Shown in pieces: positions 3,188 to 37,529 of a stretch of DNA of 37,529 nucleotides. The notes under the pieces were generated by a model. The model worked only from the letters and a program-made list of their open reading frames with translations, was not told the origin of the DNA and searched no databases. The position numbers were made by a program, and so were the translations under genes. The stretch comes from a virus (Duplodnaviria > Heunggongvirae > Uroviricota > Caudoviricetes), in IMG/VR virus record IMGVR_UViG_2778261576_000005, positions 1-37,529 of that record. The stretch is one strand, 5' to 3'. Numbering within the stretch: position 1 is the stretch's first letter; every line of letters begins with the position of its first letter.

Positions 3188-4236
3188 GAAATCGTCCCCA
3201 GAACCGCCAGTTCGTTTTTCGCAATGGAGATATTGTCTGCCGGTGCAAGCAACTGATGGCTGTATTCCCCGTTCGCACCGGAAATCGCTTCACTGATACG
3301 CGACACCTTCAGCTCTCCCTGCGGATAACCATCACGCAGCAGGAACGAACGCAACTCCGCGGTAATGGCAGCCCGTATTTCTGGTGTGTCCGGCGTCACG
3401 CGGATATGAAAATCCACCGTATGTGCCACCGGCCTGAATACATACAAATCAGAGCCTGCCACCGGGGCCAGTGGCCCGATATGTTGTCTTGCTGCCGTTT
3501 CCGTTGATTCTTCCGGAATGGGATTAATCAGGTCACTGCTGGCAATCATCACACCGACAGTTCCCGTTCCCATCCAGTGTCGGTATGTCCATGCGCGGGT
3601 AATGCCGGGCACTTCTTTAGCCCAGACGACATAGTCCCCGTCAGCCCCGCCCTGAGGCGTCCAGTAATACCGCTCAATGACGCGGGCGCGCCACATTTCC
3701 AGCTCTTCAGTATCAAATCCACCTGTCAGTGTATCTGCCACGCCGGAAGACGGCAGACCATTCACCGGCGTGACCAGGATTAATGACGTACCGTCGTCAG
3801 CGTTACCGACCGCGCCTGCACTTGAGCAGGCGATCGGCACGCGCAGGACACCACCGGAGCTGGTTGCATCGGCAGTTGCCGTGTACTGCACCAGGTCATC
3901 GCGCTGAATAACACTCCCGGCGGTCACCTTCAGGCCATCGCTGACACCTTCCCAGCGCATATACCCGCTGGCAGCCGTGGCCCCCTTGCGCGGACACCGT
4001 TTCATCGCAGCATGTCGCGCCAGCCAGGACTCATCGCACAAGTCAGGCAGCATGTTCATTGCCAGATAATCGATGTACCCGTAAACCGTATGCAGCGCCG
4101 CCGCATACACCTTTGCCCGCACGTCTTCATCCATGCGCCGGAGCGTGTCGCTGACGTCCAGCCTGGCGAATAAATCGTTACGGAGCATACTGATATTTTC
4201 TGCCAGCGTCGGGCGCTGAAATTCACTGTCCGCCAT
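3178..4236 (-). CDS. Baseplate J-like protein (Mu gp47-like)
   Basis: 352 aa; size and position in Mu-type baseplate block. Confidence 0.75.
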
Positions 4237-4651
4237 GCGTTATCGCACTCCACAGATCATCAAAAGAAATCATTACCGGTCCGTCACGACGCCAGAGAGT
4301 GATACTGTTACCCAGTTCATTAATCCCGGTGCGGCGGATATCCAGATCAATACGGGACACCACGCCGTCATCAATCATCCATTGCAGGCATTCGCGGATA
4401 TACCCCCTTACCGTCTGCACCAGCTGATTGGTCAGTTTGCTGCGCTGAAGCAGCCACAGTCGGGAGCCGTAACGGTCATTCTGTACCGCAGGCCAGGTAT
4501 CCCCCCACCATCCCATCGGGACGTCGGCGTTGTCATCAGGCTCCGCCCGCCGCCAGGTAAACAGGGAAATCACCACGGCGCGGGTCAGCGGATCCAGCGG
4601 TGCGCTGGCGCAGGTGCGTTTACCGTTCACCGTCAGCCACAGTTCCATCAT
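4223..4651 (-). CDS. Baseplate protein, Mu gp46-like
   Basis: 142 aa; overlapping coupling with neighbours in the conserved order V-W-J-I. Confidence 0.6.
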   Translation of the reverse strand: MMELWLTVNGKRTCASAPLDPLTRAVVISLFTWRRAEPDDNADVPMGWWGDTWPAVQNDRYGSRLWLLQRSKLTNQLVQTVRGYIRECLQWMIDDGVVSRIDLDIRRTGINELGNSITLWRRDGPVMISFDDLWSAITHGGQ

Positions 4652-5196
4652 GCCTCCATCGCTTTATCAGGTTTGTCGGTGTTACTGCCCTGACCGTTCT
4701 CTCTGTGACGATGCCCGTTATAGGCAAGCCGCATCGCTGACATGGTGGTGCCGCCGGAGTCGCACAGGTCTTTCACCTGTCCTGTCACTTCCAGGTCCAT
4801 TTCAAAACGTGCTTCAGGTGCATTGCGAAACGTGATCGTTTTACCTGCACCGTCCACCACGATCCCCTCCCGGGTCAGCGTCACGGACTGCCCCTGATCG
4901 TCATAGACAGCCACCTCACCCGTCTGCAGCCCTTTCAGGCGGTAGCGCCGGTCCGACACCGTAACAACCACCGCATGAGAACGGTCGCCATCCGGAAACA
5001 ACACCACCGCTTCCGCACCGCTGTTTGCCCTTGCGGTAAAACCGTAGGGTTCAAGATGTTCAACCCCGGCTTTGGGTTCACCGGCAATCAGGGACACATC
5101 CACGGTCTGACATTTCGTGGCGGCACTGATGCTTTTCACCACGGCCCGCCCAATCAGGCCGAGGAGTTGTCGCTGCATGGCTTCAATCGTCCTCAT
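4648..5196 (-). CDS. Baseplate assembly/spike protein V-like (Mu gp45-like)
   Basis: 182 aa; position after hub gene. Confidence 0.65.
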   Translation of the reverse strand: MRTIEAMQRQLLGLIGRAVVKSISAATKCQTVDVSLIAGEPKAGVEHLEPYGFTARANSGAEAVVLFPDGDRSHAVVVTVSDRRYRLKGLQTGEVAVYDDQGQSVTLTREGIVVDGAGKTITFRNAPEARFEMDLEVTGQVKDLCDSGGTTMSAMRLAYNGHRHRENGQGSNTDKPDKAMEA

Positions 5197-6275
5197 CAGA
5201 ACGGGTCCTCCTGTACTCTGGCTTTTTTCTTTTTCCGCGCGCCGGGGGCTTCGGGTTCAGGCAGATAAGCATCAGGCGGGCCGACACGGATTTCCGTCAG
5301 GGTGCCGTTCTGGTCTTGAGTAAACGTGACTTCCGAAACAAGCAGTTCGGTATTGTCGAAACCACAGACCGGATCAAAGACAATCACCCGCTGGTTGGGC
5401 TGCCACAGCGTACCGTTACCCTGTCGCCAGCCCTGCACCACATAGGTGGTTTCATCCGTCCGCGCCGCCCGTTGTCTGGCTTCAAAGTCCGCACGGGCAA
5501 TACAGCCTGCCCCCGTAGCCTGCCCTGTCTGCCTGATATACATCGGACGGTAACGGGCAATAAATGCGTCCTCTGTGCGGGCCCGCAGCGCGGTGGTGGT
5601 GGCCTCACCGAAATCATCGTCGTTTCCGGCACGCTGCCCCGCCACCTGGTAAACAGAAAACCGCTCCCGGATACTCTTCTCCGTATCGCAGGAAAGGATG
5701 TTTTCCCCGAGTACCAGCGCAGTATGTGCCCGCGTTGAGCCAATACCGCCAATCACCAGCCTGCCGTGCGGGTCGTCGTAAGCCAGTGCCTGCTGCTGAC
5801 CGAGTATTTTGTTGATTACCTCAATCACCGTTTCACCGTGATCAGGCTGAACATCAGGAATAACACCCGACGGCGCACCGCTGTTCACCACCTCAATGCC
5901 GAAAGGCGCAGCAAGCGCCTGCGCAATCTGCACCAGCGAGCGTCCGTTAAACTGTGTCGGTTCGGCTGCACAGTCAATCAGGTCAGCCGTCAGACTACGT
6001 CCGGCAATACCGGTGCTGACCGAACGGGAATCGTAACGAACGGGCGTCGCCTCCACCCAGCCGGTGATCACCAGCTCATCACCAATCAGCACTTCCACTT
6101 TTGAACCGTTTTTAATGCGCGGCTGAAGCGTGGTGATACCCTCATCTCCCGGCCACTGGCGGGTGATCTCCACACTGAAATCCCGCGCCAGCCGTTCAAT
6201 ACCGGCACCGATGCGCACCGATGTCCAGCCATTCCACTCCCGGCCATTTACCCGTAGCGTGACATTGTCGTTCAT
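5196..6275 (-). CDS. Tail/baseplate hub protein, Mu gp44 / P2 gpD-like
   Basis: 359 aa; follows the DNA circulation gene as in Mu. Confidence 0.65.
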   Translation of the reverse strand: MNDNVTLRVNGREWNGWTSVRIGAGIERLARDFSVEITRQWPGDEGITTLQPRIKNGSKVEVLIGDELVITGWVEATPVRYDSRSVSTGIAGRSLTADLIDCAAEPTQFNGRSLVQIAQALAAPFGIEVVNSGAPSGVIPDVQPDHGETVIEVINKILGQQQALAYDDPHGRLVIGGIGSTRAHTALVLGENILSCDTEKSIRERFSVYQVAGQRAGNDDDFGEATTTALRARTEDAFIARYRPMYIRQTGQATGAGCIARADFEARQRAARTDETTYVVQGWRQGNGTLWQPNQRVIVFDPVCGFDNTELLVSEVTFTQDQNGTLTEIRVGPPDAYLPEPEAPGARKKKKARVQEDPF

Positions 6276-7600
6276 TGCACTGGCACCTTCAGAGGGATCA
6301 CCGGCACAAAGCCGGGATGCGTAATGGCATTACGCCGGATAATGTCCGCGTCACGCGCCGCGTTATCAAACCAGGTCGCCGCCAGCACCAGCGCGGGTAA
6401 AACCTCATCCGGTGTGCGCTGAATGATCCGTACAGACTGTTCAAGGCGCGTGTTGATATCCGCATTCAGATCTGCTTTCACCCGGCGCAGCGCCAGAAAC
6501 AGCGCATCGCTGGTTGTACGGGACAACTCCTTATCAATTGCCGTATTCAGTGTGTCGCGAATGTCAGTCAGTTCTTCCCACGTCGGCAGGTCAACCGTGT
6601 TTTTCACCGCCGGTGCATTGTTCAGTGCCGGATGCGTGACGGAAGGCCAGCCAGTGCTCTGCGCGGGTGTTGTTGCCTGCCCCACTGCGGAATTCTGCAT
6701 CACCGCGGAAGTTGTTGGCGCAGGCAATCGGGTGACGGCATACGCCGCTTCGCTGATTGCGGTCGTACGAAGGGTGCTGGCAACCACGTTACGCTGCTGC
6801 GTCGCCGTGGCGGTGGTTTTACTGTCCGTTTTCCAGACGCCGCGCGGTTGCAGATCGCTGCCGAGGCTGACACCGGAAAGCGTTTTGATCATGGTGACCA
6901 GGTCGCTGGTGTTACCATAAAGGCGTTTCCCGGTACGCCACATTTTCTGCACCTGCTCAACGAAATTTTTGCCTGACGATGGCGGCGGCAGAAGTACCGA
7001 GATATCCCCCTGCAACAGCCTGGCGGCATCCGATACGGCAGAATCCACCACTTTCATCGCATCAGAAACATACCCCAGCATTATGCTGGCATTACCGATA
7101 ACGTCGTTCTGCACGAAATCCGCCACACCATCGATACTGAAACCGCTGAAGCTGTCACTGATGCAGTCATCCAGTGCAGAACAGGATGACATCAGCGTCT
7201 GCGCCGTCGCCGCACCTGATGTGGGGTAAGAGAGTTCTCCTGCTTCGACAAACTTCAGGTCAAAGCGGACAATACGCCCTTCACTTTTCGATGTGCTGAC
7301 CCGAACTTCCCCGTCAACACAGACTTTCAGCTCACCATATGTCGGGTGGACAAGCGTGCCGGGACCGGGTTTATTCAGCGCTTCAATCAGGCGATCGCGC
7401 TGGTCAAAGCAGTCATCTCCCACCACATAAGCTGTGATGGACGGGCGGAAAGTGACTTTTCCCAGATCTTCGGTATAGGGCTTGTCGCGGTTCGGATATT
7501 CGTGTGTTTCCACACGGCGACCGGTTCCCGCACTTTCTTCTTCAACCTTAAACGGTACGCCGCGAAATGACGCATCCTGAAGCCTGTCTTTCCACGTCAT
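6272..7600 (-). CDS. DNA circulation protein (Mu gp43/N-like)
   Basis: 442 aa; N-terminus ASFRGVPF...HEYPNRDKPYTEDLG is typical of this family. Confidence 0.8.
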   Translation of the reverse strand: MTWKDRLQDASFRGVPFKVEEESAGTGRRVETHEYPNRDKPYTEDLGKVTFRPSITAYVVGDDCFDQRDRLIEALNKPGPGTLVHPTYGELKVCVDGEVRVSTSKSEGRIVRFDLKFVEAGELSYPTSGAATAQTLMSSCSALDDCISDSFSGFSIDGVADFVQNDVIGNASIMLGYVSDAMKVVDSAVSDAARLLQGDISVLLPPPSSGKNFVEQVQKMWRTGKRLYGNTSDLVTMIKTLSGVSLGSDLQPRGVWKTDSKTTATATQQRNVVASTLRTTAISEAAYAVTRLPAPTTSAVMQNSAVGQATTPAQSTGWPSVTHPALNNAPAVKNTVDLPTWEELTDIRDTLNTAIDKELSRTTSDALFLALRRVKADLNADINTRLEQSVRIIQRTPDEVLPALVLAATWFDNAARDADIIRRNAITHPGFVPVIPLKVPVQ

Positions 7601-7614
7601 ATAAACTCCGGATA

Positions 7615-7671
7615 CAAAAAACCCGCCAAATCTGCTTTGTTAGTTATTTACATCGCAGAAGATGTGGCGGG
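7615..7671 (-). terminator. Candidate intrinsic terminator downstream of the tail-operon moron
   Basis: Minus-strand stem CCCGCCA / TGGCGGG with an internally structured long loop, followed by a run of six T. Confidence 0.4.
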
Positions 7672-7690
7672 AACCTAATATTTTTAATTA

Positions 7691-8203
7691 CTATCTGAGT
7701 TGAACATCAATGGAATAAATATTACCACTCTTTATAAATTTAGAATCTGTCCTTTCATCAAAAGATTCAAATGACTGTACCTTTAAAAACTTTTTCATTT
7801 TATTTTCAAAAATACTTTCATTAACACCAGTTAAATACTTGAATGCTCTACCAGCAAGGACCTCATTACTTAAATCCATTGTGTTTTTATTGTCTTTGAA
7901 AAACCAAACAATAACCTTTTGTGGGCATGATGGATTATAAACAGATATATAAAACTGCGGCTCATATTTTTCATCAGCGTCATCACTAAGCATTTCTTCA
8001 GAAGATAATTCTCTTCTGAATTCATATTGCCGCTTAGTTATTCCTTCATCCTTTATTATCTCTTGCTTAACTGGTGCAATACCTATAGAAGAGATTAATT
8101 CTGACTCATTAAAGCTGAACTTACACTCTTCCGCAGCCAAGTTAAAAGATAAAAGTGCAGATATAAAAAAAACAAAGATACGCATAATCATCCCTTCAAT
8201 CAT
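7691..8203 (-). CDS. Moron-encoded secreted protein of unknown function (likely start at 8185)
   Basis: AT-rich insert between DNA circulation and tape measure genes; signal-peptide-like MRIFVFFISALLSFNLA then AEE; two Cys in the mature part; AAGGG SD-like element 6 nt before the third ATG. Confidence 0.6.
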   Translation of the reverse strand: MIEGMIMRIFVFFISALLSFNLAAEECKFSFNESELISSIGIAPVKQEIIKDEGITKRQYEFRRELSSEEMLSDDADEKYEPQFYISVYNPSCPQKVIVWFFKDNKNTMDLSNEVLAGRAFKYLTGVNESIFENKMKKFLKVQSFESFDERTDSKFIKSGNIYSIDVQLR

Positions 8204-8284
8204 TTGTAAGGAATGATTATATTAACTACTTAAAGCTGAAAACCCAAATTATGCCAGACAAAAACACATTAATCATTTTGTACA

Positions 8285-10117
8285 CTACCTGAACCGCGTA
8301 TAGCCAACATCATGGCTGACATCAAAACCGCTGGATCGCGTTTCCATAACCCGCATACCCGGAGGCGAATTCACAAAAGAGACCTTGATCTCACCATCAA
8401 CTTTTGGCGCAGAAGCTTTGTTAATCATGAAGGGATTCTGGCCTGTGGCATCGGAGGCGTTGTTTGACTGAGCCGGATCCACCGCCGGATAAGGTGTGTA
8501 TCCCCGTGCCGGTATTCCCGTCCCATAAGCATCATAAGCACCCGCGCCCCACTGCGCAGAGTTAATGGCATCGACCGTGTCACCGGAACTGTCGGTAAAC
8601 CACTCAATAATTGGCTTCAGCTTGTCCCACATATCCTGAAACCACTTAACAACCGGTCCCCAGTTATTGATTACCATCCCCAGCGGCGACCAGGCAAAAA
8701 CCTTCTTCAGAAGTTCCCAGCCAGCCTCAAAATAAGGACCAATGGTTTCCCAGAGCTTCTTGAAATAAGGTCCGACAACATCCCAGTTAGTGATAATTAA
8801 TCCCGCAGCCAGGGCTATCGCCGTCGCAATCATGCCAATCGGCGTCATCGACATGATCCTGCTGACAATACTGATGGCACCGCCAACGCCCATCAATCCC
8901 AGTTTCAGAATCGCAAGACCGGCAGCAAGCCCGACGACGCCGCGAATAACCCGGGGATTTTCATCCGCAAACTTCGTGAATTTCTCCCCCAACTCCCCCA
9001 GCCATTGTGTGATATTTTTAGCGTCACCAGAAAATGCGCCGCCAATAGCCGCAAGGCCGTTAGTTGCGGTCCCTGTCATTGCCTCCCACAGGTTGGACAG
9101 CGTACCAAGCTGTGCCTGAACACGTTTATTCAGGCTGGCCTGTTTATTCATCTTCTGCTGGATCTGATCGTAGCCATCCTTTCCTTTATCGATTAGTGCA
9201 TTGACCACCTGAAGAGTTTCGGCATCATCACCAAATATTGCCTTAAGTACACCTGTTCGCTTAACGTCGGTCAGTTTTCGCAGCTTTGCCAGTTGCCTGA
9301 ACATGTTATCAAGACCGCCAAAACTCCCTTTGCCGTCAGTAAAATCGAGCTGTACCCCGAGTTTCTGGCGGGCCATGATTTTATTAACGTCCCTGATTTT
9401 CTTAACGCTTAATCCGGACTGGATAACTTTTCGCAGGGCATTACCTGCCGACTCCCCGTTCATCCCCATCTGATCCATCATGACGCTGATGGGGGCAAGG
9501 CTCTGTGCAGCCTGAAGACCATCCTTGTTCACCATCTTCAGAACAGAACTGGTTTTAGTGAAGAAGGACAACATGTTGGTATCGTCAACGCCCAGATAAA
9601 ACGCCTTCTGGATAGTGTCGAACAGCCCCATCATGTCTTCTGACGCCGTTCCGGTAGCATCCTGCATCTTTGCAGCAAACTCAGCAGCCGCTTCCGGTGT
9701 TTTTTTCAGTTGTACCGCAAGATAAGCTGTCGCTTTACCCACACCACCCAGAATGTTTTCTGCCGGGATCCCCTGACGCACCAGCATCTGCATCATGTTC
9801 TGGAAATCAGCCGTTGTACCGGGTAGCTGGTTACCCAGGCCAATAGCCAGTTTATTGATGTCCTGAAAGCGCTTTCCAACCTCGCCGTTCGCATCCATCA
9901 TGGCGACTTTCAGCCCGGTGGCGGCGTTTTCCTGATCGGCATAAGATTTCAGGGAAAGCGTCAGACCCGCAGCCAGTCCGCCACCAAGCGCCAGCCCACC
10001 CTGTGACGCTTCTTCCGCCTGGCGTTTAAATCCCCGGATTTTCTTTTGCATTTTCGACAGCGCGGGAGAAAGCCTGTCGACACCGGTGATCAACGCCTTA
10101 AGCTCAAATTCAGCCAT
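8285..10117 (-). CDS. Tail tape measure protein
   Basis: 610 aa; Gly/Ala-rich with hydrophobic segments; follows the frameshifted chaperone pair. Confidence 0.85.
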   Translation of the reverse strand: MAEFELKALITGVDRLSPALSKMQKKIRGFKRQAEEASQGGLALGGGLAAGLTLSLKSYADQENAATGLKVAMMDANGEVGKRFQDINKLAIGLGNQLPGTTADFQNMMQMLVRQGIPAENILGGVGKATAYLAVQLKKTPEAAAEFAAKMQDATGTASEDMMGLFDTIQKAFYLGVDDTNMLSFFTKTSSVLKMVNKDGLQAAQSLAPISVMMDQMGMNGESAGNALRKVIQSGLSVKKIRDVNKIMARQKLGVQLDFTDGKGSFGGLDNMFRQLAKLRKLTDVKRTGVLKAIFGDDAETLQVVNALIDKGKDGYDQIQQKMNKQASLNKRVQAQLGTLSNLWEAMTGTATNGLAAIGGAFSGDAKNITQWLGELGEKFTKFADENPRVIRGVVGLAAGLAILKLGLMGVGGAISIVSRIMSMTPIGMIATAIALAAGLIITNWDVVGPYFKKLWETIGPYFEAGWELLKKVFAWSPLGMVINNWGPVVKWFQDMWDKLKPIIEWFTDSSGDTVDAINSAQWGAGAYDAYGTGIPARGYTPYPAVDPAQSNNASDATGQNPFMINKASAPKVDGEIKVSFVNSPPGMRVMETRSSGFDVSHDVGYTRFR

Positions 10118-36761: not shown

Positions 36762-37034
36762 ATGAACACCTTGTTTTTACTGATGGCTGAATTCAATACC
36801 CCTAACATTGAACTCTCAGCAGTTAGCCAAAAGTACTTTGGCATGAGTCCAGCCACGGCAGAAGCAAAAGCAAACGCTTGTAAGTTGCCCGTTCCAACAT
36901 ATCGCATCGGCACATCACAAAAAGCAAAACGTTGCATCAATATTCAGGATCTTGCGGAATACATAGACAAAAGGCGAGAAGAAGGGCGTGCTGAGTGGGA
37001 AAGGGTCAGAACCCATAAACAAAGGCTCATTTAA
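36762..37034 (+). CDS. Excisionase-like DNA-binding protein (PrtN family)
   Basis: GGAG SD 6 nt before ATG 36762; about 90 aa; last gene of early-left operon before the expected int. Confidence 0.5.
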   Translation: MNTLFLLMAEFNTPNIELSAVSQKYFGMSPATAEAKANACKLPVPTYRIGTSQKAKRCINIQDLAEYIDKRREEGRAEWERVRTHKQRLI

Positions 37035-37041
37035 ATAGAAT

Positions 37042-37075
37042 ATGAATAAACCCATCCAAAGATGGGTTTATTCAT
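37042..37075. terminator. Perfect 15-bp stem hairpin between convergent xis-like gene and the 153-aa ORF
   Basis: atgaataaacccatc-caaa-gatgggtttattcat; no clean T-run on either side. Confidence 0.5.
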
Positions 37076-37529
37076 AATGTTGAAGAGCAGCGAGTATCAG
37101 TTTTTTATGCCGTTTAACCATAGTTTTAGATATCTCAACTGCACATCGAACTTGTCTCATACAATGATCTGTAATGCGACCTTTTAGCACGTCACCATAT
37201 TGGATGGCTATTTTCTCTTTAATAATTTCAAGATCGAAAGCAGCATGAGCCTCAATGCAATTAACAAATGAGTCCCATTTAAGAAAATCATGGTCCTCTC
37301 TATTAATTTCGACCTGACAAGCCATAAGATCATTGTTTCTCTTAATAAATTCATTTATATCTGAATTTATTAGAAGAACTAAAAGAGGTTCACAGCAAAC
37401 AACCACCATATATTTTACTTTAGGTGGGGTCGTAAAATCACAATGAAGATACAATACATCACCGGGTGATATACCTCTTTCACGACTAAAATTAGCCTTA
37501 AAATCAGGAGGGAAACAATCACCCAGCAT
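37068..37529 (-). CDS. Hypothetical protein encoded on AT-rich DNA (153 aa), unknown function
   Basis: ORF runs to the window edge, which ends exactly on its ATG; convergent to the early-left operon. Confidence 0.5.
   Translation of the reverse strand: MLGDCFPPDFKANFSRERGISPGDVLYLHCDFTTPPKVKYMVVVCCEPLLVLLINSDINEFIKRNNDLMACQVEINREDHDFLKWDSFVNCIEAHAAFDLEIIKEKIAIQYGDVLKGRITDHCMRQVRCAVEISKTMVKRHKKLILAALQHYE

Follow-up and report, generated by a model that had tools for sequence, protein, structure and literature searches.

A probable toxin gene of a PanA-PanT module in the xis-attP cargo slot of an Escherichia coli prophage

The minus-strand ORF at the right end of the window, that is, of the whole 37,529-nt stretch of viral DNA analysed here, is a probable toxin gene of a Panacea module and is called panT in the following. 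We consider it likely that panT encodes the toxin of a two-gene type II operon, PanA-PanT, that the protein has a MazF-type fold and that the pair is cargo of the lysogen. Judged by its homologues panT is an E. coli prophage member of an already catalogued family, PanT cluster T5, and no new kind of system. An apparently orphan prophage ORF thereby turns into part of a well-delimited module that is open to testing in E. coli, where assays are easiest. Its biochemical interest lies in the combination of a MazF fold, a conserved Lys/Asn-Ser site and a stand-alone Panacea antitoxin in a tractable host. The features at the right end of the window are listed in Table 1.

Table 1. Features at the right end of the window
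Feature	Position	Strand	Description
xis	36762..37034	+	PrtN-family excisionase-type gene; PF11112, E = 2.9e-23; last gene of the early-left operon
hairpin	37041..37076	both	TATGAATAAACCCATC / CAAA / GATGGGTTTATTCATA; perfect 16-bp stem, 4-nt loop
panT	37068..37529	-	ATG start, 153 aa, complete ORF; probable toxin of a PanA-PanT pair; predicted MazF-like fold with N- and C-terminal helices

The panT gene and its terminator

The window closes with the ATG of panT, which takes up its final three bases. The G+C content of the ORF was 34.8% compared with 51.3% for the window, the eighth lowest value among 742 sliding segments of 462 bp. A word-indexed search yielded 41 relatives with 42-99% identity, nearly all of them 152-157 aa in length and all annotated as hypothetical. 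HMMER, run exhaustively against 1.84 billion cluster representatives, gave 711 matches at E <= 1e-3, of which 221 had E <= 1e-10; most were about 150 aa long. The alignment of the relatives begins at the first residues. The last 800 bases of the window have an identical counterpart in an E. coli genome, where the stop codon of the upstream gene lies 5 nt before the ATG of panT and in another frame, and the in-frame stretch upstream of panT is closed by a stop codon 45 nt up. Because the relatives are of similar length and align from their first residues, and because the upstream in-frame stretch is closed by a stop, panT is a real and complete gene. The reading of the window by sequence alone (below, the sequence-only reading) had considered completeness possible. 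In the extended sequence panT neither formed the end of an integrase gene or a host gene nor belonged to a longer frame.

The profile libraries provided no name for the product. There was no match to Pfam (E <= 1) or NCBIfam, and searches of PADLOC and PHROGs gave hits at chance level only (PDC-M02B with E = 0.016 and phrog_29007 with E = 0.0087); no PADLOC model convincingly matched PanT or PanA. Naming the distant relatives via cluster membership led almost exclusively to metagenome proteins without names. The sequence-only reading had assigned the ORF to no known family, which holds for these four libraries, yet Kurata et al. (2022) had already listed the family under PanT toxin cluster T5.

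A comparison of panT with a 75%-identical homologue resulted in a dN of 0.167 and a dS of 1.34. The dN/dS ratio of about 0.12 indicates strong purifying selection at the level of the protein sequence. In five of the 46 E. coli genomes with panT the match was one base longer. AST20, the one genome of these that was read, carries an additional A after codon 105 (1201-1696 of its locus); the insertion shifts the frame of the C-terminal third of panT and leaves panA, the gene upstream, intact. Decay of this kind, with panT frameshifted and panA intact, is what one would expect of a toxin gene.

The hairpin between the convergent genes xis and panT is a bidirectional intrinsic terminator. Its folding energy was -24.4 kcal/mol for the plus and -23.0 kcal/mol for the minus strand, z was -7.4 in either case, and none of 200 shuffled sequences was as stable. 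On both strands a T-rich run comes after the G+C-rich core (CCCATC/GATGGG); a terminator scan reported the hairpin, together with its T-rich tail, for the minus strand. The sequence-only reading had correctly described a perfect hairpin and an AT-rich 153-aa ORF convergent to xis. However, the stem measures 16 bp instead of 15 bp and the ORF does not lie beyond the hairpin, as its last three codons, i.e. two sense codons and the stop (37068-37076), are located in the right arm. In phage mEp460 this xis gene bears the annotation excisionase. At the stop codon of xis the homology between the window and other phages breaks off, with matches ending at 37012-37034 of the window, and each of the related phages has its own, different hairpin at the end of xis.

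Position in the prophage and the partner gene panA

In E. coli CFS3292 the prophage is integrated in dusA. An intact dusA and a tyrosine integrase are found at its far (left) end, and a 107-bp, 83%-identical copy of the 5' end of dusA is located at the right end, 140-195 bp beyond panA and 140 bp from the annotated start. Of the two copies of this duplication, positioned at 7886-7992 of the locus with the int end and at 9529-9635 of the locus with the panA end, the one by int completes a functional dusA. The one at the panA end is annotated as a pseudogene fragment; the arrangement is typical of dusA-specific integrases.

Base 1 of the window aligns with the first base after the stop codon of the integrase gene. 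Because the window starts just past this stop, int is not missing but resides at the other end of the prophage. The expectation of the sequence-only reading that int should follow xis thus fails for the integrated prophage, whereas it fits the circular map, where the order is xis, convergent cargo, attP, int and dinI. The same order was seen in phage mEp460.

The slot between xis and attP is occupied by other genes in related phages. In mEp460 it contains two unrelated convergent ORFs of 57 and 177 aa without a Pfam match (locus 3362-4265), and in phage 1720a-02 a convergent ORF of 182 aa with weak matches to membrane proteins (locus 3339-3887). Each of these slot genes is preceded by a hairpin of its own. 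Among 5,426 complete E. coli genomes xis was present in 741 and panT in only 46, with all copies on the chromosome. Every inspected copy of panT was located at dusA. Different integration sites for the copies were considered and rejected, as the checked copies were all at dusA and their coordinates differ with the origin of the genome. The genome counts and the alternative occupants agree with the earlier suggestion of accessory cargo near xis. Hence, from its sequence context, panA-panT is AT-rich cargo of a lambdoid prophage in dusA and occupies a variable slot that lies between xis and attP. It resembles other cargo at prophage ends, such as morons between xis and attP and the genes in P2 hotspots, in being AT-rich, in having a predicted promoter and terminator of its own and in the existence of alternative occupants.

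A minus-strand ORF of 170 aa without a Pfam match (7691-8203 of the window) looks like another cargo gene. It lies in an AT-rich island at approximately 7500-8400 with 30-36% G+C, between two large minus-strand ORFs at 6272-7600 and 8285-10117.

We found panT in 32 IMG/VR contigs. Several of them begin exactly at the ATG of panT and others at codon 1, 3 or 19 of panA. Evidently, the end of the window at the ATG is without biological meaning and the provirus boundaries in IMG/VR are trimmed at gene edges. Since panA and int were both dropped from the window, trimming splits the presumptive toxin-antitoxin operon. The cut falls between antitoxin and toxin gene, and consequently viral catalogues list the toxin without its partner.

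The gene directly upstream of panT in E. coli CFS3292 is annotated by RefSeq as encoding a 'Panacea domain-containing protein'. It is on the same strand with a gap of 5 bp, and a gene of this kind at this distance in the genomes identical to the window bears out the idea of the sequence-only reading that a partner may lie past the edge. The product, PanA, matched PF13274 SocA_Panacea with E = 5.2e-20 and 72.9 bits against a cutoff of 25.7 bits over residues 50-161. A tblastn search of all collected loci detected a PanA homologue immediately upstream and on the same strand in 37 of the 37 panT loci that had upstream DNA. The identities of both proteins fall in parallel, with 40-61% for PanA where PanT has 42-60%. 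The contexts of the gene pair are mutually unrelated and comprise an Idiomarina chromosome, an integrase island, a Morganella island with a dusA-type integrase and a P2-like Rahnella prophage. From the unrelated surroundings it follows that panA and panT move together as a unit.

Two of these loci have noteworthy neighbours. In the metagenomic integrase island (locus 2120-2816) a ParE-toxin/HTH pair lies upstream of panAT at a distance of about 700 bp, which makes two toxin-antitoxin modules neighbours. In the P2-like prophage of Rahnella aceris (locus 3471-5688) panA-panT lies between the gpA and portal genes beside a gene with an AbiJ N-terminal domain. The position between gpA and portal is a P2 hotspot for defence genes.

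Upstream of panA a sigma-70-like match, TTGACC-18-TAAGAT, was detected. It is weak, agreeing at 9 of 12 positions, and no better than chance in the scan, which found 3 such matches against 5.1 expected. The annotated start of panA, giving a protein of 193 aa, leaves almost no leader behind this promoter match. On the other hand, a start at the third in-frame ATG (Met19), with GAAGGG as a good Shine-Dalgarno sequence at a spacing of 7 nt, yields a protein of 175 aa; homologues have 172-176 aa. The start given by RefSeq (9333-9387 of the CFS3292 locus, minus strand) is therefore probably too far upstream. The Shine-Dalgarno sequence of panT is weak and its start codon follows 5 nt after the stop of panA, which suggests that both genes are translationally coupled.

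Family membership and predicted fold of PanT

The domain of PanA was named Panacea by Kurata et al. (2022; PMC8832971, PNAS 119:e2102212119), who described how PanA antitoxins combine with PanT toxins of dozens of mutually unrelated clusters and demonstrated that PanA and PanT form complexes. The network was extended by Ernits et al. (2023; PNAS 120:e2305393120), in whose work a stand-alone Panacea protein directly neutralised its toxin and a sensory role was favored for the Panacea domain. The accessions of the E. coli PanT and its partner did not occur in the examined parts of the supplements of both PNAS papers. Because of this, we assigned PanT through a homologue from Photorhabdus. In the examined part of Dataset S1 of PMC8832971 the pair of Photorhabdus heterorhabditis VMG, consisting of PanA WP_054475899.1 and the toxin WP_054475897.1, is listed as pT5/T5 with the order antitoxin then toxin and a gap of 3 bases. 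The Photorhabdus homologue P0033 is 53% identical to PanT over its full length, and its 90% cluster includes WP_054475897.1. Thus homology places the E. coli protein in PanT toxin cluster T5. It shares with the published T5 pairs a stand-alone Panacea gene directly upstream of a MazF-like toxin candidate of about 155 aa, an antitoxin gene that comes first and is separated from the toxin gene by a few bases, and the occurrence in prophages and islands. With at least 87 mentions in the examined part of Dataset S1, T5 is among the larger PanT clusters; what this part lists from E. coli falls into clusters T1 and T3. The same part reports HHpred matches for another T5 member, with 99.5% for EndoA and MazF and 98.5% for CcdB.

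According to the part of Table S1 of PMC8832971 that was consulted, the pair of Chryseobacterium bovis is the only one of T5 that was tested. Its PanT proved toxic in E. coli; toxicity was likewise seen with its PanA, which gave no rescue. For this reason T5 does not count as a validated toxin-antitoxin pair. Validated pairs exist for the MazF-like PanTs of P. moraviensis and B. ruminantium, both of which specifically inhibit protein synthesis, while eight other predicted PanTs were not toxic in E. coli (PMC8832971). In the two validated systems a stand-alone PanA neutralises a toxin that is recognisable as MazF-like by HHpred only. They differ from the present pair by belonging to other FlaGs clusters (T6 for PanT-Pse.mor.).

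An AlphaFold2 model of PanT calculated from an alignment of 26 sequences had a pLDDT of 90.6 and a pTM of 0.83. The model predicts an SH3-like barrel of the MazF/CcdB type, more precisely of the MazF/PemK/Kid type. Beyond MazF it contains an N-terminal helix (residues 2-17, modelled with lower confidence), an inserted helical segment (100-114) and a C-terminal helix (139-148). These helices correspond to about 45 extra residues in comparison with MazF, PemK, Kid and EndoA (PF02452). PanT further differs from these toxins by having a Panacea protein as a partner and not MazE, PemI or Kis, and by the lack of membership in their family at the sequence level. PF02452 (PemK_toxin) was not detected in any of 145 PanT relatives at E <= 1. 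A search of PDB sequences with a profile of the PanT family yielded noise and no MazF, and hhalign against a single MazF sequence gave a probability of 1.7%.

We then used an alignment of six PDB-verified MazF/Kid sequences, in which MazF, Kid and E. coli MazF matched their PDB entries with no mismatch over the aligned stretch and the other three sequences came from the PDB. The 145-member PanT profile aligned by hhalign with this shallow six-sequence alignment over 105 columns, covering MazF residues 2-116, with P = 0.0028 and a probability of 11%. In this low-confidence mapping GDV of PanT (23-25) is paired with GDV at 5-7 of MazF from S. aureus, Lys39 with Arg24, Asn55 with Thr47, Asp86-Ser87 with DS of the MazF segment DKDSVILLEQ, and helix 121-133 of PanT with the C-terminal helix of MazF. 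Arg24 and Thr47 of S. aureus MazF are the equivalents of the catalytic residues Arg25/Thr48 of B. subtilis MazF and Arg29/Thr52 of E. coli MazF. According to the same low-confidence alignment the positions of the canonical Arg and Thr are taken in PanT by Lys39 and by Asn55 followed by Ser/Thr56, which are chemically similar but do not represent the canonical pair. In 145 divergent relatives the best-conserved residues were K39 and S87 (100% each), C91 and S/T56 (99% each), N55 (98%), G23 (95%) and K37 (90%). Because the residues at the MazF active-site positions are the best conserved ones of the family, we read PanT as having retained an altered active site on a MazF scaffold. At the same time the replacement of Arg/Thr by Lys/Asn-Ser means that RNase chemistry of PanT is not assured.

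Proposed mode of action and competing explanations

In the mechanism that we favor, panA, encoding a stand-alone Panacea/DUF4065 antitoxin, and panT would be transcribed in this order as one operon from the weak sigma-70-like promoter upstream of panA. The shared hairpin would end transcription of panAT and halt that of xis arriving from the opposite side. Free PanT would act as an endoribonuclease, with cleavage of RNA leading to a block of translation and growth arrest, and PanA would neutralise PanT by direct binding. Toxicity of PanT, its RNase chemistry, the neutralisation by binding of PanA and the biological role are all steps that we infer.

In the lysogen the pair most likely would serve in defence or addiction. 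It could confer abortive infection or defence against superinfection, or, as an addiction module, it could punish cells that lose the prophage. Defence or stabilisation is suggested by the location in a prophage cargo slot and by homologues that lie in a P2 hotspot beside an Abi-like gene. A literature search on Panacea and phage defence led to the two PNAS papers only, and to none that connects the family with phage defence. One may speculate from the convergent layout of xis and panT-panA that antiterminated early-left transcription passes through xis at induction and runs antisense into panT-panA, tying the module to the lytic switch.

A bolder variant also assumes an enzymatic toxin. PanT of T5 could constitute a distinct branch of MazF-fold enzymes with a site made up of Lys39, Asn55-Ser56, Ser87 and Cys91 and with a substrate or chemistry unlike that of mRNA interferases, and panAT could be an abortive-infection system in which PanA senses a phage cue and releases the toxin. 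We consider this combination rather doubtful.

It is unlikely that PanT is not the toxin at all. It would then be harmless, e.g. a sensor, adaptor or regulator built on a catalytically inactive MazF scaffold, and either the Panacea protein would be active or toxic or only the complex would work. The toxicity of C. bovis PanA without rescue in the consulted part of Table S1, the eight non-toxic PanTs and the sensory role preferred by Ernits et al. (2023) would fit such a scenario, as would the fact that the catalytic Arg and Thr of MazF are not present as such. Yet C. bovis PanT was itself toxic according to the same part of the table. Antitoxin before toxin with a gap of 5 bp is the usual layout of type II systems, the positions of the MazF active site are the most conserved ones in the family, and the frameshifts occur in panT and not in panA. 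Quite unlikely is the explanation that PanT is toxic without being an endoribonuclease and that its CcdB/MazF fold poisons another target, e.g. DNA gyrase as CcdB does, or a component of translation. It is hardly credible that panT is an open frame that arose by chance or a remnant decaying within AT-rich junk DNA where the prophage ends: the low G+C content, the lack of a match in four profile libraries and the frameshifted allele of five genomes would go along with a remnant, but the notion is refuted by a dN/dS of about 0.12 at a dS of 1.34, by hundreds of relatives of similar length, by a confident and compact structure model and by synteny of panA and panT kept across bacterial orders.

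Besides the favored assignment to a PanA-PanT type II pair, two other types of toxin-antitoxin systems were considered and rejected. A type III toxin like ToxN, AbiQ or CptN was dismissed because neither tandem repeats of an RNA antitoxin upstream nor an Rfam family were detected. With SocAB, the type VI system of Caulobacter, the pair has in common the Panacea domain of the antitoxin, and some copies of panA are annotated by RefSeq as 'SocA family protein'. However, PanA scored 17.4 bits with the NCBIfam equivalog model of SocA, NF047745, against a cutoff of 190 bits. SocB is an inhibitor of the replication clamp unrelated to MazF, and SocA is a ClpXP adaptor and not an antitoxin that inhibits by binding.
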